Source: a bacterium (GTDB lineage: Bacteria; Vulcanimicrobiota; Xenobia; Xenobiales; Xenobiaceae). From it: DNA of 64,000 bases. The number at the start of each line of letters is the position of its first letter. Position 1 is the stretch's first letter. The stretch covers positions 13,513-77,512 of the forward strand of contig JAUNIO010000004.1 of the NCBI GenBank assembly GCA_030535355.1, written 5' to 3'. The notes below the pieces were generated by a model that saw nothing but the letters and a program-made list of their open reading frames with translations, was not told the origin of the DNA and did not search any database. Made by a program: the position numbers and the translations under genes. Below, one piece after another: positions 471 through 60,907 of the stretch.

Positions 471-487
471 TTTTACTGACTTCGGAT

Positions 488-3371: not shown

Positions 3372-3423
3372 AAGTATTTTGCGGCTGGGTGTCTAGATAC
3401 AGTGCTGTAAGGCAAATGGGAAG

Positions 3424-5400: not shown

Positions 5401-5411
5401 ACCTTTCCCGT

Positions 5412-5908: not shown

Positions 5909-7441
5909 ATGAAGTTTTGGCGGTTAATAGGAAAAATATTCTGGAATAAATACACCAAATGGCCGCTTATTATTGTTATTGCAATAATACTTGTGTTCAA
6001 AATCTGGGATTATTGGGATTTTCGCGGCAGCCGCGGATCGGCCGAGCCGCAGGAACTGGCCCGTGAAGAGAAACTATGGCATTTTATGGGTGTTATTGAC
6101 AAACTGGATAACGACTATTATCAAACGAAACAAAAATCAGCTAGTCAACGCGATGAAAAAATAGATAAATATTTAACTGCGTATGACGTAAATTATTTCA
6201 CCTTTCACCCTTTAGATTTTACTAAAATAAGAGAAAGTGCCGCTCAGTGTTTGGGAAAATATAATCATTGCAGGGAACAGCTGCAGCATATACCAGATGC
6301 CGACCAATTTGGATACCGCGATGAAATGCTCGTTATGCTGGCATTAAATTTACGGATTTTTAATTATTCTCTTATGGGTGATGAGTTGCTGTTCAATACG
6401 CAGCATTATTTTGATAATAAAATTGCTTACGATGATTTAAAAGAAAAATATTATAAATTGTACAGCAGAGAAAATAAAAATAGTGAATTTATATGTCTCC
6501 CTGACCGTAGTTATTTTGCTGTGGAAAATACTACACTAAAACTTTCTTCAGTGAATAGTGCGATGTTTTGCATCAAAGAACATAGCGGTTATAGACTATG
6601 GCAGGGGCAGTCGCTCGCTTCTTTACAGGAAGAGATCGATCCTTTCGTAGTTAGTGATGCAGATTATTCGATTGGATATTCGGTTTTAGATCCACGTGGG
6701 CCTGCGTGGATAAGATATTTAGAATGCCGTCAGCAGAACGGGTCTAAATGTGCTTCGCTGCAGCTTCCGATTGTCAGAATGTTTTCGCTTCCGCTGCTGT
6801 ATAATAAATATATGATTTTTATGACCAGTTTAGGCGGCAACCGTAATCCAGAAGTTGTTCAGCAGTATGCGGCGGGTAAGAAAGATGGTATAATAATAAA
6901 CTTTGCCACAGCGCAAACAGATGAGGAACGGCTGTGGCGTTTAACTAATTATCTTGCTGTTACTGCCGATAATTATTTATGGACGATAAAATTTAACGCC
7001 GATCATAAACTAAAACCAAGTAAATTACTAGCAATTCAGCTTGTGCCTAGGTTTGGCAAAAATAGTTCCGAGATGAAGCGATATAACCGAATTCTAACTG
7101 CGGATTTGCAATATTGCCGCCGTCAAGTTCAATCTAAAGAATTTCAAAGTTTTCCGGGAAACAAAAAATCTGCCTTGGAGTTCTTTTCTGCCGTTGAAGC
7201 GATCCAGCAGACTTGGGAGCGCTATCGCCAAGATAAAATTGACTATAAAACGTTTTATAGGACATTGCAGAAAACTGAAGAGCTGTATGAGAAAAAACGC
7301 CAAGAGGTTTTGAGCCAACGCTGGGATTATTTGTATTCGCAAGCACCAAATAGCTATGTTTATATTGTTACATCGCTGCGCACCGATGGAGTACCTCATC
7401 CGGCACTGAAACGCTTGACAGAAGCAAAACTGCAGCTTTAG
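5909..7441 (+). CDS. Membrane-anchored protein, paralog B of the same unrecognised family
   Basis: 510 aa. TM anchor followed by WDYWDF, and the shared internal and C-terminal motifs. Very AT-rich. Confidence 0.65.
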   Translation: MKFWRLIGKIFWNKYTKWPLIIVIAIILVFKIWDYWDFRGSRGSAEPQELAREEKLWHFMGVIDKLDNDYYQTKQKSASQRDEKIDKYLTAYDVNYFTFHPLDFTKIRESAAQCLGKYNHCREQLQHIPDADQFGYRDEMLVMLALNLRIFNYSLMGDELLFNTQHYFDNKIAYDDLKEKYYKLYSRENKNSEFICLPDRSYFAVENTTLKLSSVNSAMFCIKEHSGYRLWQGQSLASLQEEIDPFVVSDADYSIGYSVLDPRGPAWIRYLECRQQNGSKCASLQLPIVRMFSLPLLYNKYMIFMTSLGGNRNPEVVQQYAAGKKDGIIINFATAQTDEERLWRLTNYLAVTADNYLWTIKFNADHKLKPSKLLAIQLVPRFGKNSSEMKRYNRILTADLQYCRRQVQSKEFQSFPGNKKSALEFFSAVEAIQQTWERYRQDKIDYKTFYRTLQKTEELYEKKRQEVLSQRWDYLYSQAPNSYVYIVTSLRTDGVPHPALKRLTEAKLQL

Positions 7442-7480
7442 TAATTTAATGTATAGTTAGTTTATAGGATAAGATAGCGT

Positions 7481-9139
7481 ATGAGCTGGATTAAAAACAA
7501 ATTATTTCCTGTTTTAAAATACTTAAAATATTTGGGCATTATTATTATCTTAATAATTATGATCGAAGCTTGGGAACGCCATATCACAGCTTCTATCCAC
7601 AAAGCTATACCGCCAGAGGCTATCAAAAACGAGCAGGAGCTTTGGTCAGCACTGTGCGCTTTGGCTCAAGACAGCCAAGAATATTATGAGCAGAGCGAGG
7701 AAATCTATAAAGAAGGCGATAAAAAACGGCCCAAGGCAGATGCTGAGCACAGCGTTTCTGAGGATGAAATATACGATGAAAAACATACCCCTAGAGTGCT
7801 CACTCCGCCGCGCCGTTTTGATTTAGGAAAGCTGCGCCAAAACGTCAAGAAATACGCTGGCAAATTGCGGCAGCGCCGCAAACAGATGGAAAAAGTCCCC
7901 GATGATCCCAATATTGGCTACCGCCAAGACGCCCTGCTGTATTGGGTGCTGTGTGAACGGTCGCTGGCTTTGCAGCAGCTGGCCTGGGAATTTATGCTGA
8001 ATGCTGAAGCCAACTATGCCAAGCATCCTTTGCCTGCTGCTCTCTTAGATAAAGAGAAATACCTGCGCATGAGCTATTATTTCGATCCCGCTTTGTCCGG
8101 CTATTATAATCTATATTATAATAATCCCCGCAAGAAGGGTTTTAAATACCCCTATTTTGCCTTCCTAATGCTGGAAAAGGACGCTTTGCGCTATGCGCTG
8201 TACCGGGCGGAGTACCGCTGCAATCAAGGCCATGGAGGCTTTGGCTATTGGCAGGGAGATTTTGCTGAAACCATCTGGGTCGATTTCAACTGGGAATCAT
8301 ATTTGGGGCTGTATTTCCGCGATGATTCCAATGAACTTTATGATCTAACAGGCAGCAGATTTAACAGCTATCACGCCCGCCATTACCGTCACGATTCTCG
8401 CGCTATGGGAAAATCAGGCTGGGCGCGGGGCTTTGAGCTTAGAAGTAAATCTCACTCGGTATATGCCTCCATATTGATATCCTTGATAAAGTGTTCTGAA
8501 TATTGCCGCAGCTTAAATCGTATTTACAAAGAAAAGTGGTGGGACAAGCCGGATGACAGCGATATTCGCGGATATATATCTCTGTCATGGATACCTCAGT
8601 CATTTCGCAGCCCTGATGATAAATTATGGGATACGGCGCGTTTTCTATATTTATGCACTGACAACTTTCTCTGGAAGATCAAATTTGCAGAAAGCCATGG
8701 CGTGGAAGATAAAAAAATCTATCCCTGCGTCATAAGGGAAAAGTACGGCAAAAAAAGTGCAGAACTGCGTTTTTACCGCGATGCTTTAGCCTCAGACTTG
8801 AAATCCTGCCGCCAAAAGATAAACGATGCTGATGGTTTAGAGGATCCTGAGCTGCAGGAAGCGGCCCGCAAAGTCTGCGCTAATACTGAAGCGATTTTAA
8901 AAATCTGGGACAGTTACTGCGCTGGTAATATCACTTACGCGTCTTTTGTCAAGACTGTGCAGAACCAAGAAAAGTCTTATTATAATTGGCGCTATAAAGC
9001 CATTACCGCCCGCTGGAATTATTTGCTGAAGCGCAACAAAAATGCGCTGCTTTATACAAAGCAGAACCTCTCGCTTGACGGAGTCCCCTATTTCTTAATC
9101 GATCCTTTGGTCTCAAAAGCTTTGGAAAAAAAGGATTAA
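7481..9139 (+). CDS. Membrane-anchored protein, paralog C of the same unrecognised family
   Basis: 552 aa. N-terminal TM helix. Shared motifs: GYRQDALL, GGFGYWQG, TDNFLWKIKFAESH, KYGKKSAELRFY, and the C-terminal W..Y....Y..F and RW.YL signature. Confidence 0.65.
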   Translation: MSWIKNKLFPVLKYLKYLGIIIILIIMIEAWERHITASIHKAIPPEAIKNEQELWSALCALAQDSQEYYEQSEEIYKEGDKKRPKADAEHSVSEDEIYDEKHTPRVLTPPRRFDLGKLRQNVKKYAGKLRQRRKQMEKVPDDPNIGYRQDALLYWVLCERSLALQQLAWEFMLNAEANYAKHPLPAALLDKEKYLRMSYYFDPALSGYYNLYYNNPRKKGFKYPYFAFLMLEKDALRYALYRAEYRCNQGHGGFGYWQGDFAETIWVDFNWESYLGLYFRDDSNELYDLTGSRFNSYHARHYRHDSRAMGKSGWARGFELRSKSHSVYASILISLIKCSEYCRSLNRIYKEKWWDKPDDSDIRGYISLSWIPQSFRSPDDKLWDTARFLYLCTDNFLWKIKFAESHGVEDKKIYPCVIREKYGKKSAELRFYRDALASDLKSCRQKINDADGLEDPELQEAARKVCANTEAILKIWDSYCAGNITYASFVKTVQNQEKSYYNWRYKAITARWNYLLKRNKNALLYTKQNLSLDGVPYFLIDPLVSKALEKKD

Positions 9140-9489
9140 AGTATAGGGCTTTGCTTTGGGCGAGAATCGTTGGCCCGGGAAAATCAATTATCGGGAATCA
9201 GCAGGACTCACCAGCAGGGCTGAAAGCGTATCCGCTGAGCGGTTTATTATGGCTTGAGCGATTATTGGCGGCAGCAGGTGTCTGACGCAGATGAATCAGG
9301 TAGATAGCCGACAGCTCTCTTGCATAAAGAAAAAATAAAGGGGAAATAATTGTATCTTCGCTGAATATATCTCCCCGTAAGCTAATGCCGTTACTGTGTG
9401 CGAACACAGCGCGGAGACAATGGTATATGTGCAGCATTTGCCATATCCTTGAGATTGGCCTAAACGATATTGCACCCTAAATAAACGGC

Positions 9490-11355
9490 TTGGCAATGCA
9501 GTACGGTTCATCTTTTCTGCGGGGAGGTTATCAGCGTATGGCCGATTCAACTAGAAATCCTCATCAGGCTCTAACCGAACAGGAGCAGCGCGATATAGTG
9601 GCCCAGTGGGCTTTCGACGTTCGCCCTTTGCTGCTTCGCTTCCACCTGTATTTAGAAAACGTGCAGACTACTTGGATTAGGGGAGGGCGCACTTCAGAGA
9701 CTTTGCTGGAAATGTCCTTCTTAAATGGGCGTATCGAGCGCCTAATGGCTCTTACCGCTGCAGTTACAGCCTTAGGCACTAAGCTGTACGGGCGATTTGG
9801 TGACGGTAAAAATTTAGATAAGGTGCGCATCAATGCTGTCAAAAAAGATTCCGACGCCATATCGGCCTACGCTATGAGCGAAAGCCTGTGGCACCTCTCC
9901 CGCAGCTTGCCCGAGAACCACGCGATCATGGTGTGCCTGGGCGAAGGCTTGATGCCCAAAGGCGGAGAGACGCCGGAAATGGGTTCTAATCCCCAGCTGG
10001 GTTTTGGGCGCGTTTACGCCCGTCCCGAGGTGGCTCAAATTTTAGATAAGCTGATTGTGCGCCTGCTCAACGACGCAGATTTTACCTGGGAACAGTTTTA
10101 CGCCGAAGTAAAACGGCGCGGCATAACTATTTGGGGCACGGCTATAGATACTTTGGAAAATACCACCCGTTTTGCCCGAGGCGAAAACGTAGGCCCCATG
10201 ACCATTCTGCACATCTTTGATCAGCCCATGAGCATTACCCGGCCTTACGAGGGCTATATGGGGACGCTGATTGTCCCGCAGGCCGTAATCGATACGGCGG
10301 AAAAAGATTCTATTCTGATCAATTATCGCACCGATAGGCGTTTGGTCATGGAGGCTATCCGCCGCACCTATCCTGGGCTAAAGCCCGAGAAACTGCATGT
10401 TTGGACCTTAGGCGGAACTAGCCGGGAGCCGAGGTTAGCTTCACTGTGGAAACAGTGGGAAGATTTGGGTGCCCATGTCATCGAAGACGGCTGGATTACC
10501 TCAGAAGGTATACCTTCCTTTAACGATTCCGGCACCTATGCGCCTACCTATCATGTTAAAACTTGGAGGGATGCGAGCGGTGACTTAAACCTTATGGTAA
10601 TAGACGGCTATGCCGCTTCCGCTGAAGCTTCTCAGGCGGCTACCGTGGCCAGAAGCCTGGGATTGGCTGCTTCGCTTTGCGTATTGACCTCCAAGTGCGC
10701 CTTTGACTGGCAGATCGAGCGCGAGATTATGCGTCTCAATGCTGATGCAGACGATTTCGCCTCTCAGCTGCAGGCTTTAACTGGCTGCGCGGTAGATGAT
10801 GAAATGGCAGCCTCATATCGGCGCATGATCCACGAATGCGTACAGGCCAATATTCCTTTAAAACGCAGCGTTATGGAAGCCGGGGACCTTTTCCCAGAAA
10901 AAGAATGGCGGAGCCTGGCGGTATGCGGTTATATGTGCGCTGATCCTTATACTGGAGCTTCTGGCGTGCGCCAACTGGAGGAGAATGTGTACGAGGTGAC
11001 GGTGCGCCTAGTTTCAGAAGAGGCCGATAAGCTGGTGACTTTTGCTCTGAGGCTCAATGAGACCCCTGGACAGGAACGTTTGGTCTTCAATCCTTTGCTG
11101 AACCGCTTTATGGCGGGTGAAGATTATCGCAGCCGCCCCGTGCGCATCTCCGACTCAGGACGTATTCGCAATGAGCTGCAGACTCTGTGCGCCGAAGCCT
11201 TGGAATTCCCCAGCAGCCAGGAGATAGTCGTGCATTTTAACAAAATTTCTCCGGCGCTGATCAGCGCGGAAAACCAAGGGAAATTGCGCGAGATTTTGTC
11301 CTGGTACAAACAGCGCCACCCCTATTGGTTTAAATGGCTTTCCGTCCAGGACTAA
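9490..11355 (+). CDS. Fructose-1,6-bisphosphatase class II (GlpX)-like domain protein with N- and C-terminal extensions
   Basis: The central region shows GlpX-like patterns (VCLGEG...E, GTAIDTLENT, LGGTSREP..L...GAHVIEDG, LMVIDGYAASAEA). The 621-aa length is about twice that of GlpX, and the identification rests on pattern similarity alone. Confidence 0.35.
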   Translation: MAMQYGSSFLRGGYQRMADSTRNPHQALTEQEQRDIVAQWAFDVRPLLLRFHLYLENVQTTWIRGGRTSETLLEMSFLNGRIERLMALTAAVTALGTKLYGRFGDGKNLDKVRINAVKKDSDAISAYAMSESLWHLSRSLPENHAIMVCLGEGLMPKGGETPEMGSNPQLGFGRVYARPEVAQILDKLIVRLLNDADFTWEQFYAEVKRRGITIWGTAIDTLENTTRFARGENVGPMTILHIFDQPMSITRPYEGYMGTLIVPQAVIDTAEKDSILINYRTDRRLVMEAIRRTYPGLKPEKLHVWTLGGTSREPRLASLWKQWEDLGAHVIEDGWITSEGIPSFNDSGTYAPTYHVKTWRDASGDLNLMVIDGYAASAEASQAATVARSLGLAASLCVLTSKCAFDWQIEREIMRLNADADDFASQLQALTGCAVDDEMAASYRRMIHECVQANIPLKRSVMEAGDLFPEKEWRSLAVCGYMCADPYTGASGVRQLEENVYEVTVRLVSEEADKLVTFALRLNETPGQERLVFNPLLNRFMAGEDYRSRPVRISDSGRIRNELQTLCAEALEFPSSQEIVVHFNKISPALISAENQGKLREILSWYKQRHPYWFKWLSVQD

Positions 11356-17719: not shown

Positions 17720-19936
17720 ATGCAAATGGATAATAACTTTTATAGTCATAAATTGTTTGCTAAATTAGCCTTTTCTGCTTCGCTGTCTTTTTTGACCCTT
17801 ATGGCGTTTCCAGTCTCCGCTGAACCTTATTTCGAAGTTGATAATATGACAGCCGGATATTCCTGTAATTTCCTTGCCGAACCGCATACTCAGCTGCTGG
17901 CAGTAGGGCAGCTTCCCAGTATGCAGAGTGTCGGCAGCAAAGTATCCGGCATTAAAGTCAGCGATTCGCAGGACACCACGGCGGAAAAGCAGCTGGAACG
18001 GCTGAAGAATTTGTTGGAGCAGGGCAATACCGAAGCCCAAGTGGAGATGGGATACCGCTATTACCGCGGGCAGGGTGTGCCTAAAGATGTCGGCAAAGCC
18101 TTGGAATTGTGGAAACTGGCTGCCGACAAAGGCTCTCGTGTCGCTCAGTTCAATGTGGGCGTGCTCTACAACGAAGGCGAGCATATAGCCAAAGACAAAG
18201 CGAAAGCCGCTGAATATTTCACTAAAGCCGCCGAACAGAACCACATCGATGCTCAGCTGAACTTGGGGCTGATGTACCTGCTTGACCCCGAAGTGACCAC
18301 TGACATATCCAAGTCCGAAGGCTGGTTTTCGAAGGCTGCTGAGCGCGGTTCGGCTGTCGGTATGCTGTATATGGGGCTGCTCAGCGAAAACGAGCATAAA
18401 GATTACGCCAAGGCGGCGGATTGGTACAATAAAGCTGCCATTCAAGGCAACCGGGCCGCCAAAAACAACTTAGGCCTGCTCTATTTTCATGGGCGTGGCG
18501 TAGAAAAAGATGAAAAACGCGCCCGTCAGCTCTTTTCTGAAGCGGCTGAGGCTCATATGCCGGAGGCTCAGTACAATCTGGCCTGCATGATGTTTGAGGG
18601 CTTGGGCGGACCGGAAAATAAGCCGGAGGCCTATAAGCTTACTTTGGCTGCCGCTGAGGGTGGTTACGGCAAAGCCCAGTTTCAGGTGGGCAGCGCTTAC
18701 GATCGCGGCGCAGGCGTAGAGCAGAACGATGTCAAAGCTGTTGAATGGTATGAGAAAGCCGCTAAAAACGGCGTTTCCGAAGCCCAGTATAACCTAGGCA
18801 ATATGTATCTCTGCGGGCGCGGGGTGAAGGCCAATCCCAAAGAAGCGCTGAGATGGTTTAATAAAGCCGCTGAACAGGGCGATGTGGAAGCTATAAGCAA
18901 CATCGGGGTGATGTTTGAAAAGGGCATGGTTGTGCCCCAGGATTTCGCTCAGGCGCGCAAGCTCTATACTTTGGCGGCGGAGAATGGCAATCCTCAGGCG
19001 ATGGTCAATTTGGGCAATCTTTACTATAAAGGCGCCGGAGTCCCCAAAGATATGGCAAAAGTGGCGGAGTGGTGGTCTAAAGCCGCAGAAATGGGCCATA
19101 TAGACGCTATGTATAAAATGGGAGTGCTCTATTCCGAAGGCTTAGGAGTGGAAAAGAATGCCCAAGAAGCTTTCAAATGGTACAAAAAAGCTGCCGAGCT
19201 TGGCCATGCCTCAGCCCAATGCTATGTGGGCAGCGCTTATCTCTTAGGTGAGAATGTGCCTGCGGACCTAAACGAGGCCTTAAAGTGGCTGGAGAAATCT
19301 GCGGCCCAGCGAGACCCCAGAGCGGAGCTGCTGGCGGCGACCATTTTGCTGGAAGACAAGAAACACCAGCATGAACCGGCAAAAATCCTGAATTTGCTGC
19401 AAGACGCCGCCAGTCAGGGACTTCCTGAGGCACAGTTTAATTTGGGTCTCCTTTACGATCGCGGCCAGCTGGTAGAAGCCGATCATGCCAAAGCCTTTCA
19501 GTGCTTTTTAAAAGCGGCGGAAAGCGGCTATGCCAAAGCTCAGTACAACGTAGCTGTAAGCTATCTTAGAGGTGAGGGCGTTGCCAAAGATAACGATGTC
19601 GCTGTCAGCTGGCTGCAGAAGGCTGCCAACGGCGGAGTGTCCGACGCTCAGTTTGCGGTAGGATTGCTTTATTACGCAGGCGATGTTTTGCCTAAAGATC
19701 ATAAAGAAGCCCGCCGTTATTTTACTATGGCGGCTTTGCAGCAGGATATGCGGGCTCTGTTTAACCTAGCGCTGATGCTAGCCCGAGGCGAGGGGGGCGA
19801 AAAAGATGTCAAACAGGCCATAGCTCTTTTTGAAAAGGCAGAAGCCCAAGGCTATAAACCGGCCGCTGAGCTTTTGCAAAAGTGCCGCGAGCAGCTCAGG
19901 CAGGGCGACACTCAGAACTTGGACGCCGTCAAATAA
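17720..19936 (+). CDS. Sel1-repeat (TPR-like) secreted protein
   Basis: 738 aa. Signal peptide followed by about 18 Sel1-like repeats (A..W..KAA.QG...AQ..LG..Y..G.GV.KD). Confidence 0.8.
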   Translation: MQMDNNFYSHKLFAKLAFSASLSFLTLMAFPVSAEPYFEVDNMTAGYSCNFLAEPHTQLLAVGQLPSMQSVGSKVSGIKVSDSQDTTAEKQLERLKNLLEQGNTEAQVEMGYRYYRGQGVPKDVGKALELWKLAADKGSRVAQFNVGVLYNEGEHIAKDKAKAAEYFTKAAEQNHIDAQLNLGLMYLLDPEVTTDISKSEGWFSKAAERGSAVGMLYMGLLSENEHKDYAKAADWYNKAAIQGNRAAKNNLGLLYFHGRGVEKDEKRARQLFSEAAEAHMPEAQYNLACMMFEGLGGPENKPEAYKLTLAAAEGGYGKAQFQVGSAYDRGAGVEQNDVKAVEWYEKAAKNGVSEAQYNLGNMYLCGRGVKANPKEALRWFNKAAEQGDVEAISNIGVMFEKGMVVPQDFAQARKLYTLAAENGNPQAMVNLGNLYYKGAGVPKDMAKVAEWWSKAAEMGHIDAMYKMGVLYSEGLGVEKNAQEAFKWYKKAAELGHASAQCYVGSAYLLGENVPADLNEALKWLEKSAAQRDPRAELLAATILLEDKKHQHEPAKILNLLQDAASQGLPEAQFNLGLLYDRGQLVEADHAKAFQCFLKAAESGYAKAQYNVAVSYLRGEGVAKDNDVAVSWLQKAANGGVSDAQFAVGLLYYAGDVLPKDHKEARRYFTMAALQQDMRALFNLALMLARGEGGEKDVKQAIALFEKAEAQGYKPAAELLQKCREQLRQGDTQNLDAVK

Positions 19937-51149: not shown

Positions 51150-52808
51150 ATGAAAACTCAGTGTAAATCTTCAACTGACAAACAACATGTTAAATGGCAT
51201 TTTAGGAATTTGCTGCTTTTAATAGGAGCAATATCCGTGCTGATCACCGGTGCTGTCTGCACTGCCTGCAGCGACGGGGGTGGATCGGCGGCAGCATACG
51301 GCGGCCAAGGCTCGCTGGTGCTGAGATTATCCCGCGAAACCGCTGCTGACAGCGCTTCTGCGGCGAGCAAAGGGTATATCAATAAGCTGGTGCTGCGCTT
51401 CTATGAAGGGCTGGAGGATCGCACGGCTGGCGCTTTGCTCTTTACCCGCAATATCGAAGTCGCTTCCGGTCAGTCCAGTGTGCAGATCGATAACGTTCCC
51501 GCCCCGCAGGATTATCTGTTTGTCGCCGATATTTACCTGAGCGATTCCACATCAGTTTACCGTTCTACGCGCTTTTGGGTCAGCACTAAAGTCGCTCAGA
51601 CTGTAAACGCTGAAGCGCTGGATTTAGACGTGGACAGCCTAGAACTTTCGCAGGATACAGCTGCTCTCACCGTCGGTGATACGGTTCAGCTCGCGCTGAC
51701 GGCGACTTATTTAGACGGCTTTAGCGAAGACGTTACCGAGTACGCTGTCTGGAGCGTTTCCGATGACGCTGTGGCCAGCATTGATGCGGGGTTAATCACC
51801 GCCTTGGGTTCTGGCTCCTGCACCGTGATAGCCGCTTACGGCGGTCAAGAAAAAGCCGCGATAATCTCCGTCTCCGGCAGCCCGGAACCCACTCCGTCTC
51901 CTTCGCCTTCGGTATCACCGTCTCCGTCTCCGTCGCCTTCACCGTCGCCTGAGCCTAAGGTGCTGAGTCATCTGGCTATAGATGTGACTTCTAAGACTAT
52001 CGGCGTAGATGAAACTGTTAACCTGAAAGTCACAGCCACCTATGAGGACGGTTCGGAAGAGGACGCCACCGAAAAAGTAACCTGGGAATCCGATGCTGAA
52101 GATATCGCTTCCGTGGACAGCAGAGGCAAGGTCACTGGGGTGAGCGCAGGCATTGCTCATATTACGGTATCTCTGGATAATGTGGTCTCCGATCCCGCGG
52201 TGATTACGGTGACTGATGGCCGAGCCGATCCCAATTTCTTTATCACCCCCGATGACACGGTCATACTGTGCGGGGGCCATCAAGCCCGTTTAGGGGCGAT
52301 ATTCCTCGACGCAAAAGGCACCAGAAACGATGTTACGCAGGAATGTGAATGGACCAGCAGCGACCCGGATTTGCTCGAGATTTCTGAAGAAATCAAAGGA
52401 GAACTGTTCAATACCAATACTCCGGGCACGGTGACCGTAACCGCTGTTTACACCGACGAGGCCGGGACGACGCATACGGCCACGGCTAAGGTGAAAATTA
52501 CCGACGCTGCTTTTAGTGGCACAATTGAACGGCCAGTAGTCTGTGACCCTGAAACCGCTACGATCAAAGTCGGGGAAGGCGTGCAGATCAATGTAATCGG
52601 CACCTTCGACGACGGCACCGAAGGCAACATCAACGCTCTGTTTACCGGAATGTGGCAGCTGAATGAAGGCGATTCGGCCTACGGGACAGTCGATGATTAC
52701 GGCTATGTCACCGGCACGGCATCGTCCGGAGAAAATTACATGACCGTCTGGTTCCACGATGAAGAGAGCGGCTACTCCGATGAGTCGCACATCACCGTGA
52801 CCGAGTAG
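51150..52808 (+). CDS. Big_2 (bacterial Ig-like) domain surface protein with Ser/Pro linker
   Basis: N-terminal anchor. Several Big_2-like modules (TVGDTVQL..TATY.DG..EDVT....W.S.D..VASID..G.ITA...G) and an (SP)n linker. Confidence 0.6.
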   Translation: MKTQCKSSTDKQHVKWHFRNLLLLIGAISVLITGAVCTACSDGGGSAAAYGGQGSLVLRLSRETAADSASAASKGYINKLVLRFYEGLEDRTAGALLFTRNIEVASGQSSVQIDNVPAPQDYLFVADIYLSDSTSVYRSTRFWVSTKVAQTVNAEALDLDVDSLELSQDTAALTVGDTVQLALTATYLDGFSEDVTEYAVWSVSDDAVASIDAGLITALGSGSCTVIAAYGGQEKAAIISVSGSPEPTPSPSPSVSPSPSPSPSPSPEPKVLSHLAIDVTSKTIGVDETVNLKVTATYEDGSEEDATEKVTWESDAEDIASVDSRGKVTGVSAGIAHITVSLDNVVSDPAVITVTDGRADPNFFITPDDTVILCGGHQARLGAIFLDAKGTRNDVTQECEWTSSDPDLLEISEEIKGELFNTNTPGTVTVTAVYTDEAGTTHTATAKVKITDAAFSGTIERPVVCDPETATIKVGEGVQINVIGTFDDGTEGNINALFTGMWQLNEGDSAYGTVDDYGYVTGTASSGENYMTVWFHDEESGYSDESHITVTE

Positions 52809-52928
52809 CTGAATTACTGGCGCTCCGTGCGAAAAATGCCGAGAATAGGTTTGCTCTTTATTCTCAGCTCTATTCTTTAGCACTTATAATTGAGCCGCCA
52901 TTAGACACTGTTGAACGGCGTTTAACAC

Positions 52929-52970
52929 AAAATCCGCTTCTTAGAACAGCATCTAGGAGGCGGATTTTAT
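52929..52970 (+). terminator. Hairpin terminator downstream of the Big_2 gene
   Basis: AAAATCCGC...GCGGATTTT (9-bp stem) followed by a T-run. Confidence 0.45.
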
Positions 52971-53010
52971 GTTAGGAGATTAGGCTAGGCAATATGTATG
53001 GGATTAGCCT

Positions 53011-53041
53011 GTTATCTATTGAATCTTATTTAATAGATAAC
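53011..53041. promoter_or_regulatory. Perfect 10-bp inverted repeat (GTTATCTATT-N11-AATAGATAAC), candidate operator of the downstream toxin-antitoxin operon
   Basis: Palindrome about 60 bp upstream of the Panacea antitoxin start, in an AT-rich promoter region. Confidence 0.4.
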
Positions 53042-53103
53042 AGTTATATAATCTATTATAATAATGCCGAGTATTACAAGTTTCGGAGAAGGAGACCATA
53101 AAA

Positions 53104-53535
53104 ATGGTAACAGTATTTGATGTTGCAAAGTATATACTAGAACAACTTGGCACGTTATCGACTATGAAACTTCAAAAACTCTGTTACTACGCTCAGGCTT
53201 GGTCGTTAGTCTGGAATGAAGAGCCTCTTTTTCCTAATGAGTTTGAAGCCTGGGTGAATGGCCCTGTATGCAGAGAACTATTTGTCGCCACCAAAGGCGA
53301 GGTATGCGTTGGGGCCAGCTATATAGAAGGAGATTCTTCGGTTTTATCTGAAGATCAAAAAAAGACAGTTAATTCTGTTTTAAAGTATTACGGCGATAAA
53401 GAAGCTAATTGGCTGAGTCAATTAACACACATGGAAGAGCCTTGGATAAAAGCACGAGAAGGTTTCCCTTCTGGTGTTAAATGTCATAATATAGTTACTA
53501 AAGAAAGTATGGCTAAGTATTATGGCAACCTCTAA
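53104..53535 (+). CDS. Panacea-domain (DUF4065, SocA/GepA-like) antitoxin
   Basis: VFDVAKYILEQ...TMKLQKLCYYAQAWSLVWNEEPLFPNEFEAWVNGPV is a close match to the Panacea/DUF4065 core. RBS GGAGAAGGAG upstream. AT-rich. Confidence 0.7.
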   Translation: MVTVFDVAKYILEQLGTLSTMKLQKLCYYAQAWSLVWNEEPLFPNEFEAWVNGPVCRELFVATKGEVCVGASYIEGDSSVLSEDQKKTVNSVLKYYGDKEANWLSQLTHMEEPWIKAREGFPSGVKCHNIVTKESMAKYYGNL

Positions 53536-53974
53536 GAAATCACGAAAAGACGATGGCCCTAATAAAAAGCACGATCCAGACAGCTATTTGTCTAAACCAC
53601 CAAGCTGGTGCTTTTTAAGCTGCGATACCGATACTAAGTGCAGATGGTCATTTTCTCAACATAGATTAAAAGAAGAATTTTGGACGCGCATATTTCTAAA
53701 GCTACAAAAGTTTGAGCAGATGACCTGGAGTGAGATTCAAATAAAGAGTAAAAAGCAAAATCATAGTAATATTGTTGAAACAATGAATAAATGCGCCAAA
53801 GATAGGCTTGATGAATTAGAAATTGAATATAATGCTTTATTTTCTCTGCGTTTAAATAGTACTGTCAGATTATATGGCTATCGTGAAGGAGCGGTATTCA
53901 ATATTTTATGGTATGATAATGATCATGGCGATAATGATACCTGCGTTGTCCGAAGCAGACTAAAACATACTTAG
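53522..53974 (+). CDS. Putative cognate toxin (PanT candidate) of the Panacea antitoxin, unknown fold
   Basis: 150-aa ORF overlapping the antitoxin gene by 14 nt. Lys-rich N-terminus. The C-terminal LRLNSTVRLYGYREGAVFNILWYDNDH resembles RelE/ParE-like beta-strand patterns only weakly. Confidence 0.35.
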   Translation: MATSKKSRKDDGPNKKHDPDSYLSKPPSWCFLSCDTDTKCRWSFSQHRLKEEFWTRIFLKLQKFEQMTWSEIQIKSKKQNHSNIVETMNKCAKDRLDELEIEYNALFSLRLNSTVRLYGYREGAVFNILWYDNDHGDNDTCVVRSRLKHT

Positions 53975-54044
53975 CTTGTTCTCATATATTGTAAAGCCTG
54001 CCGCCAGAACTATTGTTTGGCAAAGATGAGTTAAGGACTATAAT

Positions 54045-54926
54045 ATGGAATTGAGCGACCTAAAGCGAGCGTTGCTGTCACTTTTACAGACAGACGAAGA
54101 ACTGCGCAGTCTAATTAGCAGTATTTCCCGCAGCAGCGAACTTAGGGACAACGAGAAAAAGAATTCCCTGTCCGATTCCCGGGAAAATGCCGGGGCAGAC
54201 GGCCGGACGGATTATAGGCGCAGCGGGTACAATGAGGAGCTGCCAGAACCTAGAGATCGGCGCAGCATCGCTTTAGAAGCGGAAGTTAGGAGCCTGCGCG
54301 AGCAGCTGCGGCAGAAAGAGAATTCTTTGGTGAGTCTGAAAGAGGAATACCTGCGCCAAAAGCAGGAACTGGCGGATTCTGTTAGCGCCGCGCAACGCCT
54401 GCAGGTCAGCCTTGACGCGCTGCGCGGCGAAGCTGACTCTTTGCGGACCACCAACCAGCAGCAGTCTCAGGAACTGGAACGGCTGCGGCAGGAGCTGGCG
54501 CAGAGATTTCCCGAGGGATGGAAGCTGTTCCAAGCTTATCACAGCGTTTCTCAGCCGACCCGCGAGCTACTGCGCGGGGTGTTCGTGCGCGGGAACGATT
54601 TTACGTCGTTCATCTGCGGCGCGGCGCAGAGCGCTTCCCTGGAAAAGATTTGGAAGACCGTCAAGGGCTGCATCTCTCAGGGCAACACCCGGGACGCGGA
54701 TATTTTATGGGATATTTTCGCGTATGCTGTGAAGCTGGTCAATGCTTCCAAACCCGAGAAAGTTTACGAAATTCTGCAGGCGGAGCCGGGCATGCCCTTC
54801 GATTTGGAAGTGCACGCTTTGGCCCCGGGCAGCCGGGCCCAGGGCAATATCCGGGAGATCTACTTGCAGGGGTATAAAAACGTCTATGTGGGGCGCGTGG
54901 AACAAAAGAGCATCGTCAGCTTATGA
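54045..54926 (+). CDS. Divergent GrpE-like protein (coiled-coil N-terminal region plus GrpE-type C-terminal domain)
   Basis: Central heptad-rich segment. The C-terminus EPGMPFDLEVHALAPG....NIREIYLQGYKNVYVGRVEQKSIVSL parallels the GrpE signature G.PFDP..H.A......V..GY...R..R.A.V.V. Confidence 0.5.
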   Translation: MELSDLKRALLSLLQTDEELRSLISSISRSSELRDNEKKNSLSDSRENAGADGRTDYRRSGYNEELPEPRDRRSIALEAEVRSLREQLRQKENSLVSLKEEYLRQKQELADSVSAAQRLQVSLDALRGEADSLRTTNQQQSQELERLRQELAQRFPEGWKLFQAYHSVSQPTRELLRGVFVRGNDFTSFICGAAQSASLEKIWKTVKGCISQGNTRDADILWDIFAYAVKLVNASKPEKVYEILQAEPGMPFDLEVHALAPGSRAQGNIREIYLQGYKNVYVGRVEQKSIVSL

Positions 54927-55088
54927 TCATTGCGCCAAAGCGCTGCGCCGCAGTGACATATTTTGTCATTGTCAAAGATTATAATACGATATAACATAAA
55001 GCGGCCATTCTGGGCAGGTTTGGAACGGGGTGGCCGTATTTTAAATTATGCTTTTAGAGTAACAGAGCTTTTACAGGAGTGCAAACCG

Positions 55089-58000
55089 ATGTCCTTACCT
55101 ACCGATCATACCGCCCTCAAAACCGCTGTTAAGATTCCGGCTTTCCAGGTACCCGCTTTAGTCGCAAGCTGTATCGAAGCCGATATCGCCGCCCTGGCTA
55201 AAGATATTGCCGCTTTGTTTGAGGAGCTGGTTCCTATAGCCGAGCAGCGCTTCGTGATGATGCAGAATAAGGAGGTCTGGTATGATCGGGAAAACGCGGC
55301 TCTGTTTCCCAAGTTTGAAGCGTTAAAGCTGCCTACAAGCAATACGTCGTGCGACCCTGTCAAGACTTGGCCTGGCCTATCCTTTGAGGGTTTTGAATTT
55401 GTAATGATGACCAGAAATGAATTCAATACAAGTTTTCTAAATGGTTCTGGCAATCCGTACTTAAATGATGGAAATTATCAGTATTTTCCAATAGCAAGCA
55501 GCATTGTTCTAATAGCTGAAAAAAGTGGCAGCAAGACTGTATTTTGCTATGCTAACGGTAGCACTGGAGCCTGGTGTGACAGTGATCGTGTAACTATCGT
55601 TCCCATCTGCCGTCTCAACGGCAAAAACAGCTCAGCCGTGCCGCTGCTCCAGAGAATCGCGAGCTGGCTGGAGAACGACTTAATACCCCAGGGATTAAGC
55701 GCCCCGCAAATTGAAAAATACCAAGAACTATCCACAAGCTTCCAAAAGTATCTGCAGATTGAAAAATATCTACAGATTGAGAACAATGATAGCTCCATAA
55801 TATTTAAGGAAGCGGAATTTAAATCCGACGTTTTCTCCGGCTCCTTCACCCAAACCATCTTCGGCTACGACTTCGATTTGGCTGCCAAAACCGAGCGCGT
55901 CCTGCACCATGACGAAAAGCTCGCGTCCTCTGCCACCATCTCTGACTTTTTCCTCGGCTGCGATAAGCTGCGCGCCGATCTCGAACCCTACAAGGAAAAC
56001 CGCCTCACGGATCCCAATCTGGGGCACTGGGAACTGGCTGAGCCTGCTGACCAAGGGGATATCGAAATCGATCTTCCCCAGGATAAACCTTGGTACGCCC
56101 GCCCTCCCCAAATGGACGTGGCGGAAACCGGCACCTGCGCTATCGACTTCGGCACCAAAAGCACCGTGGTGGTCTGCCGCGATCGGGATGCCCGGTTGCT
56201 GCGCGTAGGCCGGGGCGACCTGTCCAAAGCTCCGACGGCGGCGGATTACGAAAATCCCACGGTCATAGAGCTGCGCGACTTAGAGGGCTTTATGCAGGCC
56301 TACCAAGCCCGAGAAGGGCGTCCGTACACAGAGTGGGAACAGCTGACCGTTTCCCATCAGGCCGCCGAGGCCATATTCCAGAACGACGACGACAGTTCCG
56401 TTTACTATTCGGTCTTCCGGGAACTCAAACAGTGGGCCAATGACAAAGACCGCCGGCTCATGCTGCGGGACCGTCAGGGTAAAGTTATCGAATTAAAGCC
56501 CTACGCAGAACTGACGGAAGGCGACTTCGATCCCATCGAGGTTTACGCTTATTATCTGGGGCTGTACATCAACAATATGCACAGACGCATTTATCTCGAC
56601 TATCTGCTGTCTTTCCCGGTCACCTATGAGAAAAAGGTACGGGAGCGCATCCGCCAGAGCTTCGAGCGCGGCCTCAGGAAGTCCCTGCCTCCGGCGATTC
56701 TGCGCGATGAAGAGATGATGGACATGTTTAGGGTGGCGGCAGGTGCCAGCGAACCGGCGGCTTATGCCATCAGCGCTTTGGAAGAGTACGGCCTGCAGCC
56801 CAAGAAAAACGGCTCTATTATCGGCAAGCCGGTGGCTTATGCGGTCTTCGACTTCGGCGGGGGCACCACGGATTTCGATTTCGGTATTGAGGAGATTCCC
56901 GCCGATGGACGGCGCAAATTCGTCATTCATCGCTTCGGGGCCGGCGGCGACGCTTATCTGGGCGGAGAAAATATTCTCGACCTCATGGCCTACGAGGTTT
57001 ATCAGGACAACCTGGAAAAAATGCGGGCGGAGGACATTCCCTTCGTTCTGCCGCCCGACTGCAAAAAGTTTGCCGGCGCGGAAACGCTCGTCAAGGAACA
57101 GGCGGAGGCTTCGCAGCAGGCCTACATGAACAGCAAGCGGCTGGCTCGGGAAATGCGCTGTATTTGGGAGCGGGAGAAGGATTACCGCGCCAAATTTGAA
57201 CAGGGCGACGTTTCGCTGATCCTGTTTTCCAATAAGCTGAAGAACGGTTCGGACAAGAGAGAAGTCAGCCTGAAGATCGACGTCGCTAAGCTGGAAAAAT
57301 GTATTAAAGAACGCATCCGCCGCGGCGTGGAGAATTTCTTTACCGCCATGATGCACGCGTTTGCGGACCGGGATGTTTTCCCCATTCATATTTTCCTGGC
57401 GGGAAACTCCTGCAAATCGGTGTTCGTGCGCCCTCTGTTCGACGAGTATATCCGGCATTACGAAAAAGAAATAGCCGCGGGAATGTCTGAAAGCAGCGCG
57501 CTGGAAAATGATTCCAGCGATATCTTTGTCCTGCATCCGCCTTTAGGGGCGGAGTGGCCCCCAGAACCCGTGCCCGAAAGAGATTATGAAGAAGAGGAGT
57601 GGCAGGAAAGCTATTGTGAACAAGATGTGCAGTGGGGCGAAATCAATTTTGAAGTCGCTGTATCTCCTGGAGCAGGGCACGGGCCGGAATATAAAGCAGA
57701 GGACAAACATCTGGCCAAGAATTTCGATCAGCTGCGCACCGGCAAAACCGGCGTAGCCTTCGGTCTGCTGCGCACCCGCATTAGCGCTCAGGATGTCAAG
57801 CTCATCGACGATGATGCCGTGAAAGGTGAGATTCCCTTCCCTTATTATCTGGGCGATATCGACCGGGAGGAGCATTTCCGCGTGCGCATCGGCCTAGAAA
57901 TCCCCTATGGACGCTGGATTCAGTTTACTTATGCCGACGAACCGGAATTCGAACTGTACTACACCAAAGAAGCCAGCTGCTTAAAAGGCGGTTACGGGCA

Positions 58001-58172
58001 GTATGACGTCGGGCGCGTGCGCTGCCGCCTGACCAGCAGCGATATACGTGAGGATGCCCATGTGTTTGTCCGCAAAGCCACGCCGTCCAGCATCGAGTAC
58101 GCCGTCGGTCTGGAAAGCGATTTTAATGCCGGAGAGTTTAAGGGCAAGGTTTATAAAAAAGAGCTGAAATAA
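55089..58172 (+). CDS. Giant Hsp70-superfamily (DnaK-like actin-fold) ATPase with roughly 350-aa N-terminal extension
   Basis: Phosphate-1 AIDFGTKSTVVV, phosphate-2 YAVFDFGGGTTDFD, and adenosine-motif IFLAGNSCKS in canonical Hsp70 NBD order. About 1028 aa from ATG 55089 (RBS CAGGAG); the ORF is open from 54963. Confidence 0.6.
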   Translation: MSLPTDHTALKTAVKIPAFQVPALVASCIEADIAALAKDIAALFEELVPIAEQRFVMMQNKEVWYDRENAALFPKFEALKLPTSNTSCDPVKTWPGLSFEGFEFVMMTRNEFNTSFLNGSGNPYLNDGNYQYFPIASSIVLIAEKSGSKTVFCYANGSTGAWCDSDRVTIVPICRLNGKNSSAVPLLQRIASWLENDLIPQGLSAPQIEKYQELSTSFQKYLQIEKYLQIENNDSSIIFKEAEFKSDVFSGSFTQTIFGYDFDLAAKTERVLHHDEKLASSATISDFFLGCDKLRADLEPYKENRLTDPNLGHWELAEPADQGDIEIDLPQDKPWYARPPQMDVAETGTCAIDFGTKSTVVVCRDRDARLLRVGRGDLSKAPTAADYENPTVIELRDLEGFMQAYQAREGRPYTEWEQLTVSHQAAEAIFQNDDDSSVYYSVFRELKQWANDKDRRLMLRDRQGKVIELKPYAELTEGDFDPIEVYAYYLGLYINNMHRRIYLDYLLSFPVTYEKKVRERIRQSFERGLRKSLPPAILRDEEMMDMFRVAAGASEPAAYAISALEEYGLQPKKNGSIIGKPVAYAVFDFGGGTTDFDFGIEEIPADGRRKFVIHRFGAGGDAYLGGENILDLMAYEVYQDNLEKMRAEDIPFVLPPDCKKFAGAETLVKEQAEASQQAYMNSKRLAREMRCIWEREKDYRAKFEQGDVSLILFSNKLKNGSDKREVSLKIDVAKLEKCIKERIRRGVENFFTAMMHAFADRDVFPIHIFLAGNSCKSVFVRPLFDEYIRHYEKEIAAGMSESSALENDSSDIFVLHPPLGAEWPPEPVPERDYEEEEWQESYCEQDVQWGEINFEVAVSPGAGHGPEYKAEDKHLAKNFDQLRTGKTGVAFGLLRTRISAQDVKLIDDDAVKGEIPFPYYLGDIDREEHFRVRIGLEIPYGRWIQFTYADEPEFELYYTKEASCLKGGYGQYDVGRVRCRLTSSDIREDAHVFVRKATPSSIEYAVGLESDFNAGEFKGKVYKKELK

Positions 58173-58402
58173 AGCGACTGTACAAACCGCTGGGCCGCAG
58201 CCTCCGTCTTCCGCAGTGCGATGCATACACGGCTGACGGCGCTTAAATAAATTACATTGGCCGAAAAACAAGGCCGAATTGACTGCTGCCTCAAAGGGAT
58301 TACAGCACTCGTTGCGAAGTGAAAGGTTTCTCATTTCAGTTTTACTAGTTACGGCGCCGCACTGCGGCCGCAGCCGATCCCCAGGCGCCGGGAGGATTTA
58401 CT

Positions 58403-60907
58403 ATGCAATACGAACCCAACAAGATCGAGCGCAAATGGAGAGCCATCTGGGAAGAGCGCAAGCTCCATCACGCCGTCAAGGACGAAACAAGGCCTAAATA
58501 TTACTGTCTGGACATGTTCCCTTATCCTTCGGGTGAGGGGTTGCACGTCGGCCACTGGCGCGGCTATGTGCTTTCCGACGTTTGGTCGCGCTACATGACG
58601 CTGTTAGGCTATAACGTATTGCACCCCATGGGCTGGGACGCCTTCGGCCTGCCCGCGGAAAACGCGGCCATTAAAAAGGGCGTGCATCCCGAAACCCAGA
58701 CCAAAGCCGCCGTTTCCAACATGAAACGCCAGCTGACCGATATGGGGTCTATGTACGACTGGGAGCGCGAAGTCAATTCCTCCACCCCCGAGTATTACCG
58801 CTGGACCCAGTGGGTCTTCCTCAAAGCTTACGAGCTGGGTTTGGCTTACAAGAAGGGCGCTCCCATCAACTGGTGCCCCGGCTGCCGTTGCGGCCTGGCC
58901 GATGAAGAGGTTAAGGAAGGCCGCTGCGACCGCTGCGGCTCCGAAGTTACCAAAAAGAACCTCAACCAGTGGTTCTTCGGCATCAGCAAATACGCCCAGC
59001 GCCTGATCGATGACATTAAACCTTTGGACTGGCCGGAAAAAGTCAAAAAGATGCAGATCGACTGGATCGGCCGCAGTGAAGGCGCGGAAGTCTGCTTCCA
59101 GCTTGAAGGCCTAGAGGATAAGCTGTGGATTTACACCACCCGTCCCGACACTCTCTTCGGCGCTACCTATATGGTCATGGCCCCCGAGCATCCCTTGGTG
59201 GACAAGATCACGACAGATGAACAGCGCGAAGCCGTGGAAGCCTATCGCACCCGCACCAGCACCCGCAGCGAGGTGGAGCGCCAGGAACAGCGCGAGAAGA
59301 CCGGCGTCTTCACGGGCGGCTACGCCATCAACCCGGTCAACGGCAAGCGCACCCCGATTTGGATCTCCGACTACGTGCTCATGGGCTACGGCACCGGAGC
59401 TATCATGGCCGTGCCTTCCCACGACACCCGCGACTGGGATTTTGCTAAAGCCTTCGATATTCCCATTATCCAGGTGGTGCTGACCCCCGAGCAGGAAAAA
59501 GAATTGGCTGGCTGTAAGGGTGCCGAAGAACTCAATAAAGCTTATGCGGAAAAATATCCCCAGATGCCCCTGACCGAAGCTTACTGCGAAGTGGGCACGA
59601 TGATAAATTCCGGCGAATTCTCCGGCCTGAAATCCGATGTTGGCCGCAAGCGCATCGTGGAGTCCCTGGAAGCCAAAGGCCTGGGTCGCACCAAGATCAA
59701 CTACCGCCTGCGCGACTGGCTAGTTTCCCGCCAGCGCTACTGGGGTGCTCCCATTCCCATGGTTTATTGCGACGACTGCGGCATTGTGCCCGTTCCCGAA
59801 GAACAGCTGCCCGTGCTGCTGCCTCACGTGGATAAATATGAACCCTCTGGCACCGGGGAATCGCCGCTGGCGGCCATCGATGAGTTTGTCAACACCACCT
59901 GCCCTAAGTGCGGCAAACCGGCGCGCCGCGACACCGATACCATTTCCCAGTGGATCTGCTCTTCCTGGTATTTCCTGCGCTATTCGTCTTACGACTGCCA
60001 GGATCAGGCCTGGCGCAAGGAAGACGTCGATTATTGGAACCCCGTAGATATGTACGTGGGCGGCATCGAGCACGCCGTGCTGCATCTGCTCTATTCGCGC
60101 TTCTGCACTAAGATGTTCTACGATCTGGGCCTGGTGAAGTTCACCGAACCCTTCCAGCGCCTCTTCAACCAGGGCATGATCTGCAAAGTCGGCCATTCCG
60201 GCCGCCTGGAGAAGATGAGCAAATCCAAGGGCAACGTGGTCAATCCCGACGAGCTGGTAGAAAAATACGGCACCGACTCCCTGCGCGCCTACGAGCTGTT
60301 CATCGGCCCTCCGGAACTGGACGCCGAGTGGAACGACAGCGGCATCGACGGCGTCTATCGCTGGATTAAACGCGTCTGGAATTTCGCTCAGGAAACCGAA
60401 TTTGCCAAAGATAAAGAGAGCGACATTGAAGTGTTGCGCCTCTCGCACCGCTTTATCAAAAAGATCAACGATGACTTGCAGCGCCTGCACCTGAATACGG
60501 TAGTGGCCGCGCTGATGGAATGGATGAACGGTTTATATACTCTGCGCTCGCAGGGCAAAACCATCTCCGAAGAGACGCTGCGCCAGTATATCGTCATCGC
60601 TTCTCCCATTATTCCGCACACCGCCGAAGAGATGTGGCACAATTTGGGCGAAGAAAAATCCCTCTTTGAAGGTAAGCCGGCCTGGCCTACCCATAAAGAG
60701 GAATACACCGTGGAGAACACCTTTAAACTGGCCGTGCAGGTCAACGGCAAAGTGCGCGCCACTTTGGAGATTCCTATGGGCACGGAACAGGCCGCTATTG
60801 AAGAGCTGGCCCGAGCCAATGAGCGCGTAGCTGCCCAGCTGGAAGGCAAGACCGTGCGCCGGGTAATCTATGTGCCCAACAAGCTGCTCAACATCGTCGT
60901 AGGTTAA
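58403..60907 (+). CDS. leuS: Leucine--tRNA ligase
   Basis: HVGHWRGY (HIGH class) motif, KMSKS, and the CP1 editing domain. 834 aa. Confidence 0.95.
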   Translation: MQYEPNKIERKWRAIWEERKLHHAVKDETRPKYYCLDMFPYPSGEGLHVGHWRGYVLSDVWSRYMTLLGYNVLHPMGWDAFGLPAENAAIKKGVHPETQTKAAVSNMKRQLTDMGSMYDWEREVNSSTPEYYRWTQWVFLKAYELGLAYKKGAPINWCPGCRCGLADEEVKEGRCDRCGSEVTKKNLNQWFFGISKYAQRLIDDIKPLDWPEKVKKMQIDWIGRSEGAEVCFQLEGLEDKLWIYTTRPDTLFGATYMVMAPEHPLVDKITTDEQREAVEAYRTRTSTRSEVERQEQREKTGVFTGGYAINPVNGKRTPIWISDYVLMGYGTGAIMAVPSHDTRDWDFAKAFDIPIIQVVLTPEQEKELAGCKGAEELNKAYAEKYPQMPLTEAYCEVGTMINSGEFSGLKSDVGRKRIVESLEAKGLGRTKINYRLRDWLVSRQRYWGAPIPMVYCDDCGIVPVPEEQLPVLLPHVDKYEPSGTGESPLAAIDEFVNTTCPKCGKPARRDTDTISQWICSSWYFLRYSSYDCQDQAWRKEDVDYWNPVDMYVGGIEHAVLHLLYSRFCTKMFYDLGLVKFTEPFQRLFNQGMICKVGHSGRLEKMSKSKGNVVNPDELVEKYGTDSLRAYELFIGPPELDAEWNDSGIDGVYRWIKRVWNFAQETEFAKDKESDIEVLRLSHRFIKKINDDLQRLHLNTVVAALMEWMNGLYTLRSQGKTISEETLRQYIVIASPIIPHTAEEMWHNLGEEKSLFEGKPAWPTHKEEYTVENTFKLAVQVNGKVRATLEIPMGTEQAAIEELARANERVAAQLEGKTVRRVIYVPNKLLNIVVG

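Follow-up and report, generated by a model that had tools for sequence, protein, structure and literature searches.

GAP1-N2 GTPase conflict systems carry an HSP70, the exchange factor GrpE and a DnaJ-fused component, and some of them have a second, Hsp70-only protein (Kaur, Burroughs, Iyer and Aravind, 2020, eLife, PMC7159879). Type III CoCoNuT (McrBC-related) systems carry CnuD/CnuCD proteins with Hsp70-like nucleotide-binding and substrate-binding domains (NBD and SBD); the ATPase motifs of CnuD are reported to be degenerate, and the term 'GrpE' is absent from the main text of the paper (Bell et al., 2024, eLife, PMC11090510). We analysed a stretch of 64,000 nucleotides (the window) from a bacterium of the family Xenobiaceae (Vulcanimicrobiota; GenBank assembly GCA_030535355.1, contig JAUNIO010000004.1, positions 13,513 to 77,512 of the forward strand), in which a gene for a GrpE-like protein of 293 amino acids is followed by one for a giant Hsp70-like ATPase of 1027 amino acids. 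By comparison with the GAP1-N2 systems, both of these proteins are cryptic to Pfam; by comparison with CnuD, the catalytic motifs of the Hsp70-like protein are invariant. The GrpE-like protein is supported as a strongly diverged, new variant of the GrpE family paired with an Hsp70-like ATPase, this support applying to the homology and to the identity of the partner; we infer exchange activity, physical binding, dimerisation and the biological role of the system. A search of the published literature found no description of this module.

The GrpE-like protein of the window was scanned against Pfam, NCBIfam, PADLOC and PHROGs with only coiled-coil noise as the outcome, which explains why family members that carry a name in their sources are all labelled hypothetical. 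The relationship was established by profile–profile comparison (hhalign) with a reference alignment of 11 diverse GrpEs, in which the E. coli sequence was verified against 1DKG before use. Enlarging a three-sequence GrpE set gave only Enterobacteriaceae and Geobacillus, and diverse GrpEs were therefore drawn from plasmid records (Ruminococcus, Bacteroides, Rhodococcus, Natrinema, Streptomyces, Sphingomonas, Legionella and Acaryochloris). A wide family profile of 129 members matched this alignment with a score of 62.6 (probability 95.8%, E = 8.2e-9), pairing window residues 240–293 with E. coli GrpE 138–194, while a close-family alignment of the last 146 residues gave a probability of 91.7%. 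The reversed GrpE alignment scored 20.1 (probability 1.3%) and 30 column shuffles reached at most 13.5 (probability ≤ 0.2%); with the three-sequence GrpE alignment the probability was 54–80% only. The sequence-only reading, an earlier note made from the letters of the window, had claimed that the C-terminal 45 residues resemble the GrpE beta-domain. This stretch, EPGMPFDLEVHALAPG...GYKNVYVGRVEQKSIVSL (residues 247–293), lies within the match, and with a score far above both kinds of control the claim holds.

In the hhalign residue map, window G267 corresponds to E. coli GrpE G168, G276-Y277 to G177-Y178, R284 to R183, Q287 (R in the family consensus) to R186 and V291 to V190. The family pattern over residues 236–293 is G.PFD...H ... 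QG.I..(I/V)Y(L/V).GY ... GR..(R/Q)KS.V.(L/V), and the conserved GrpE positions FD..H, GY and R..R...V.V are present in it. The Pfam GrpE family, PF01025, was the sole recurrent non-coiled-coil family among members, with matches in 4 of 16 in the close set and 7 of 129 in the wide set. All seven members with coordinates pair the protein C-terminus with the model end, six at model positions ~96–164 of 165 and one (P0167) at 7–162. A PF01025 search had been proposed in the sequence-only reading as a check, and its outcome was divided: relatives give sub-threshold matches in a consistent register and the window protein gives none. On these alignments we regard the beta-domain as homologous to that of GrpE. 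The demonstrable homology is confined to this domain, possibly with the addition of the preceding helical hairpin (residues 196–235). A shallow profile aligned residues 208–293 with E. coli GrpE 107–193, and the hairpin probably corresponds to the GrpE bundle helices, the evidence for this being weaker than for the beta-domain.

An AlphaFold2 model of residues 148–293, built from the close-family alignment, had a pLDDT of 93 and a pTM of 0.88. When this domain model was compared with the PDB by Foldseek, the nine best matches were all GrpE chains (from Thermus, E. coli, Geobacillus and human mitochondria), with probabilities up to 0.99 and alignments covering 102–157 columns. As a negative control, the same model was searched against the viral structure library BFVD and nothing was found there (best E 0.4). 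The unit of helical hairpin and beta-domain is thus predicted to have a GrpE-type fold. The sequence-only reading would have fallen with the absence of a significant GrpE-family match or with a clearly different fold of the C-terminal domain; the profile–profile relationship proved significant, and the predicted fold matches that of GrpE.

The protein encoded downstream is an Hsp70-superfamily ATPase with its catalytic motifs kept. It has at least 481 homologues and no Pfam match, and its NCBIfam HscA/DnaK scores were 11–17 bits against cut-offs above 600. A PDB profile search with its family nevertheless returned DnaK nucleotide-binding domains only, and hhalign matched residues 553–792 with DnaK 169–361 (probability 92%). 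The AlphaFold2 model (pLDDT 82, pTM 0.73) gave 50 top Foldseek matches in the PDB that were all Hsp70s, the best of them DnaK with an E-value of 4.5e-17. The motifs IDFGTKST, GASEPAAYA, FDFGGGTTDFD...GGD.YLGGE and LAGNSCKS are invariant in the family, including E555 (connect-1), D588 and GGGTT (phosphate-2) and the phosphate-1 and adenosine motifs; the phosphate-1 motif IDFGTKST was paired with DnaK by eye and the other three motifs via hhalign. Foldseek alignments of the model to full-length DnaK extend over ~720 columns, suggesting that the C-terminal domain is SBD-like, although hhalign of the protein against the DnaK SBD was not significant (P 0.26). The acidic insert between the nucleotide-binding and C-terminal domains contains Glu and Trp and varies in length among homologues.

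The pairing of the two genes was examined in related loci, among them two contigs identical to the window, metagenomic contigs and 16 metagenome-assembled genomes from rumen or gut (Selenomonadaceae, Quinella and Selenomonadales). In all 25 related loci with enough downstream sequence, which range from Selenomonadaceae to Bacillaceae, a GrpE-like gene is followed by an Hsp70-like gene. The order is kept in distant members that are 27–29% identical in the GrpE-like domain, including that of Evansella tamaricis. E. coli GrpE gave weak minus-strand tblastn matches in two loci (L011 and L012), but these fell in S-adenosylhomocysteine hydrolase and were hence dismissed as chance.

The structure 1DKG, attributed to Harrison et al. 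in 1997, reportedly shows a GrpE dimer on one NBD, with the beta-domain wedging the IB/IIB cleft open so that ADP is released. From this established GrpE–DnaK mechanism it can be argued by analogy that the GrpE-like protein dimerises, docks and sets the nucleotide state of its partner. The coiled-coil stalk (residues 76–152) would be the presumed dimerisation element, the GrpE-type beta-domain would most likely bind the nucleotide-binding domain of the Hsp70-like protein, and the GrpE-like protein would thereby control the ADP/ATP cycle of that ATPase. The insert at residues 153–195 and the conserved N-terminal segment would probably provide partner-specific contacts or links to other operon products. 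By this analogy we think it fairly probable that the GrpE-like protein is a dedicated nucleotide-exchange factor or nucleotide-state regulator of the Hsp70-like ATPase. It may, as the sequence-only reading proposed, be a second such factor beside a housekeeping GrpE.

The resemblance to GrpE is greatest in the beta-domain pattern (G.PFD..H / GY / R..R...V.V), in the same predicted fold, in the helical region and long heptad helix that precede the beta-domain and in a gene that adjoins one for an Hsp70-type ATPase (GrpE references PF01025, 1DKG, 4ANI, 3A6M and 9BLS). Unlike GrpE, the protein lies below the Pfam threshold, has a conserved Leu-rich N-terminal segment with a low-complexity linker, and carries a highly conserved insert of 43 residues between coiled coil and helical hairpin, so that the long helix does not run straight into the four-helix bundle. 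The module also lacks the hrcA/dnaK/dnaJ context, and the partner, at 1027 amino acids, has an extra N-terminal domain of 340 residues and no detectable Pfam HSP70 domain.

Several observations weigh against a role as exchange factor or against the GrpE assignment itself. The window protein has no Pfam or NCBIfam GrpE match at E ≤ 1, and the PF01025 scores of its relatives (13.8–20.8 bits) fall short of the cut-off of 25.8. PDB profile searches with the full-length close family returned myosin and SMC coiled coils only, and with the C-terminal domain alone one spurious WD-repeat match, in neither case GrpE. The deep profiles align only ~53 columns with GrpE, and the Foldseek matches are modest (E 6e-3 to 0.2, TM-scores 0.27–0.39). 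Canonical Hsp70 cycles need a J-domain protein, and none was detected in any operon examined. The 162-nt spacer with a terminator-like hairpin that separates the two genes in the window is unusually long; elsewhere the genes overlap by up to 4 nt or lie at most 25 nt apart, one locus with 70 nt excepted. Finally, the most conserved part of the GrpE-like protein is the insert, which has no GrpE counterpart and is left uncovered by the hhalign GrpE matches of shallow and deep profiles alike; being non-GrpE, it may hold the key interaction, and the mechanism may then differ.

The main rival explanation builds on the insert and takes the protein to be a GrpE-derived scaffold or adaptor without exchange catalysis, in which the beta-domain, the insert or both dock on the Hsp70-like protein and the coiled coil merely dimerises, positions the protein or links it to the HerA-like ATPase encoded in related operons; in a variant, the protein holds the ATPase inactive and nucleotide-free until a trigger arrives. 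Besides the conservation of a non-GrpE segment, such a role would fit the coiled-coil length, which varies widely as expected of a spacer, the operons in which a single GrpE-like gene serves two Hsp70-like paralogues and the lack of a detected J-protein. A pure spacer would not, however, need the retained motif, which has counterparts of residues conserved across true GrpEs, and the partner keeps its ATPase catalytic motifs, so that a nucleotide cycle presumably needs regulating. Taken jointly, the scaffold, linker and inhibitor forms of this explanation seem to us rather unlikely, and the exchange factor or nucleotide-state regulator is the reading we prefer.

Two further explanations we consider effectively excluded, each being very improbable. 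The protein could be the ordinary housekeeping GrpE of the organism, merely divergent, and the presence of a GrpE-type beta-domain and a coiled coil is in keeping with this; however, it is not recognised by the GrpE models of Pfam and NCBIfam, when true GrpEs of Bacteroides, Actinomycetes, Archaea and Cyanobacteria were readily found by tblastn (E 9e-57 to 2e-9) and could all be aligned. Its context differs from hrcA-grpE-dnaK-dnaJ, its partner is an atypical Hsp70-like protein, and the family extends to Evansella tamaricis of the Bacillaceae, a group that carries canonical grpE. That an unrelated coiled-coil protein should bear a GrpE-looking C-terminus by chance would suit the coiled-coil noise of the direct searches and the weak Foldseek E-values, yet it is countered by the profile–profile score (62.6 against ≤ 20 in reversed and shuffled controls), by the independent agreement of sequence and structure evidence and by an Hsp70-type neighbour in every related locus long enough, which chance would not lead one to expect.

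The features of the module, its surroundings and the related loci are collected in Table 1. The open reading frame of the GrpE-like protein is present exactly as the sequence-only reading described it, with a ribosome-binding site (AAGGA, 54034–54038) 7 nt upstream of the ATG. A sigma-70-like site (TTGGCA-16-TATAAT, 11/12) at 54017–54044 ends one base before this ATG and overlaps the ribosome-binding-site spacer; it is either a coincidence or the sign of a very short or absent leader. That reading had also described the first 80 residues as rich in Ser, Arg and Asp, which is true of the linker and not of residues 1–30, where 27% of residues are Leu and close and wide family alignments share the pattern M..DLK..L..LL..D.DL...I..I. 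Residues 1–30 might contact the partner, if they are taken as analogous to the N-terminal tail of GrpE. The linker differs in length among homologues, as does the coiled coil. The heptad-like helices that had been noticed upstream of the C-terminus were recovered both as coiled-coil matches in library scans and as a 3.5-residue hydrophobic periodicity in residues 76–152 that none of 2000 shuffles reached. Invariant columns of the insert are F155, G158, Y165, V168, L176, V179, F180, F186, S188, F189, I190, C191, G192 and Q195, which include the motif (D)F(T)SFICG..Q (FxSFICGxxQ). The hairpin helices are residues 49–64 and 68–87 of the AlphaFold domain model.

Table 1. Coordinates of the two-gene module, its parts, its neighbours in the window and the gene sets of related loci (L numbers denote related loci, with coordinates of their own).
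Feature	Position	Strand	Description or basis
GrpE-like protein gene	54045..54926	+	293 aa; ORF list, ribosome-binding site, homologues
Residues 1-30, conserved Leu-rich N-terminal segment	54045..54134	+	family alignments; composition
Residues 31-75, R/S/E/D/N-rich low-complexity linker	54135..54269	+	composition; indel-rich in close-family alignment
Residues 76-152, coiled coil	54270..54500	+	~11 heptads; periodicity; myosin/SMC/tropomyosin matches
Residues 153-195, family-specific helical insert	54501..54629	+	invariant columns; outside hhalign GrpE matches; modelled short helices
Residues 196-235, helical hairpin, possible equivalent of GrpE four-helix bundle	54630..54749	+	model, shallow hhalign, Foldseek
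Residues 236-293, GrpE-type C-terminal beta-domain	54750..54923	+	hhalign, controls, Pfam relatives, Foldseek
Intergenic spacer, GrpE-like to Hsp70-like	54927..55088	+	162 nt, structured
Giant Hsp70-like ATPase gene	55089..58172	+	1027 aa from ATG with AGGAG ribosome-binding site, also the gene-caller length
Hsp70-like N-terminal domain, fold family unassigned	residues 1-340		
Hsp70-type nucleotide-binding domain	residues ~345-820		
Disordered acidic insert	residues 827-876 (window 57567-57716)		AlphaFold pLDDT <50
Beta-rich C-terminal domain of Hsp70-like protein	residues ~880-1027		
SocA/Panacea-domain antitoxin	53104-53535	+	Pfam SocA_Panacea 8e-18
MAG6450/NsnC-like protein	53522-53974	+	150 aa; PADLOC NsnC 7.6e-8; NCBIfam MAG6450 5.5e-7, sub-cut-off; phrog_8366 sub-threshold
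Extended-operon gene 1, HerA-like ATPase			1020-1100 aa; PADLOC HerA and mad8 models, 1e-17 to 2.5e-23
Extended-operon gene 2			225-309 aa, conserved; Gly/Ser/Ala-rich hydrophobic N-terminus, glycine-zipper-like
Extended-operon gene 3			small variable protein
Three-gene extension	L005 12087-16562; L032 13689-18108; L033 13581-17984; L034 13675-17922		
Tandem-paralogue or ~1200-aa Hsp70-like loci	L003 9215-15574; L036 4471-11517; L019 11221-14922; L020 5217-9032		

The spacer between the two genes of the window holds a terminator-like hairpin (54941–54955), promoter-like hexamers and a second strong hairpin, with a fold z-score of -2.6, and it could act as an attenuator or an internal promoter. 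No Rfam match was found in 53900–55200.

The family is large. A word-indexed protein search gave 24 close homologues of the GrpE-like protein, in which the C-terminal 146 residues are highly conserved. HMMER searching of 1.84 billion representatives with the close-family C-terminal alignment found at least 824 clusters (50% identity) at E ≤ 1e-3 and 507 at E ≤ 1e-10, and among the 150 matches listed the domain is C-terminal in full-length members.

These two genes form the constant core of a wider, undescribed and widespread operon, of which the window carries the minimal two-gene form; a tblastn search of all 64 kb found no HerA-like gene. Ten of the 19 distinct informative loci have an extended operon with three more genes after the pair, and the other nine, window included, have the two-gene core alone. 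The first of the added genes encodes a HerA-like ATPase with ~500 N-terminal residues that are unassigned; PADLOC has no model that matches components other than this ATPase, and the three-gene extension as a set matched no known defence system. In some loci a single GrpE-like gene precedes two Hsp70-like paralogues in tandem (58% identical in L003), and others encode Hsp70-like forms of ~1200 amino acids with an N-terminal domain that is seemingly part-duplicated. A divergent clpB gene lies ~600 nt upstream of the GrpE-like gene in many Selenomonadaceae loci (L005–L008, L010, L017–L019 and L023); as these ClpB proteins are 88–99% identical, this may reflect shared synteny and is not independent evidence of a link to the module.

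Two related loci have further neighbours. In the metagenomic contig L033, three paralogous genes for dynamin-like GTPases (Dynamin_N) and three unassigned genes (241–9768) stand directly upstream of the five-gene operon, and these GTPases recall the GTPase, HSP70 and GrpE conflict systems of Kaur et al. (2020). In L034 the five-gene operon has genes for WYL/WCX-domain regulators on both sides (4863–5894 and 18239–19225). Regulators of the WYL type are often found near defence systems.

In the window, the module is flanked by a cassette of two overlapping genes, for a SocA/Panacea-domain antitoxin and a MAG6450/NsnC-like protein, and by leuS, with no hrcA or dnaJ. The cassette (53104–53974) lies directly upstream of the module and has a GC content of 0.44 compared with ~0.53 in its flanks, which suggests horizontal acquisition; it is context and stands outside the module. 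A search of the window gave no tRNA genes, and the direct repeats in 52000–59000 resemble short chance matches, none of which flank the module. Further upstream, the gene at 51150–52808 encodes a probable surface protein of 552 amino acids, which has a hydrophobic segment at its N-terminus, Ig-like segments that are repeated, a (Ser-Pro)n linker (PSPSPSVSPSPSPSPSPSP) and no recorded Pfam match.

By comparison with the GAP1-N2 systems, the module shares a non-housekeeping Hsp70 and GrpE pair in a multi-gene, NTPase-containing Firmicutes operon, and the tandem Hsp70-like paralogues are paralleled by the second, Hsp70-only protein of those systems. The NTPase of the related operons is HerA-like, however, and neither the window nor the operons examined had GAP1, GTPase, FNIII or DnaJ components. 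Divergent Hsp70-like proteins and coiled-coil-rich operons, some with FtsK/HerA-family ATPases and with glycine-zipper proteins (a CoCoNuT feature), are shared with Type III CoCoNuT systems; unlike these, the window operon and the related loci have no McrB, McrC (DUF2357), HEPN or vWA genes, as judged from Pfam listings and direct scans. The HerA-like protein that follows the pair in about half of the related loci recalls HerA anti-phage systems (SIR2-HerA, HerA-DUF4297 and mad8 of MADS), although the window itself has no HerA-like gene and the partners, in place of SIR2 or a nuclease, are Hsp70-like and GrpE-like proteins.

A role in conflict or defence is suggested by the HerA-like ATPase, the glycine-zipper-like protein, the toxin–antitoxin cassette beside the module and the WYL regulators; the GrpE-like/Hsp70-like core itself matches no known defence model. 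We tentatively raise the possibility, which we hold to be doubtful, that the pair serves as sensor or switch at the invariant core of a prokaryotic conflict system, anti-phage or abortive-infection in kind, that is widespread and undescribed; the window would then carry a minimal or degenerate version of it. In such a system the chaperone-type ATPase cycle, tuned by the cryptic exchange factor, might detect a phage- or stress-derived protein, and in the five-gene form the HerA-like motor and the glycine-zipper-like membrane protein might then be activated.

GrpE has hitherto been regarded as one co-chaperone family, easy to recognise and tied to DnaK. The strict pairing described here places a hidden GrpE-like branch always beside an equally hidden giant Hsp70-like branch, and this GrpE-like branch is a large one, its clusters (at least 824) having gone without family assignment by Pfam, NCBIfam or PADLOC. 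Routine annotation misses such co-chaperones, which profile–profile and structure comparison recover. An operon of otherwise unassigned proteins thereby gains a mechanistic starting point, namely nucleotide exchange on an Hsp70-type nucleotide-binding domain, and the finding adds to the evidence for repeated recruitment of chaperone machinery into specialised, possibly immune, systems.

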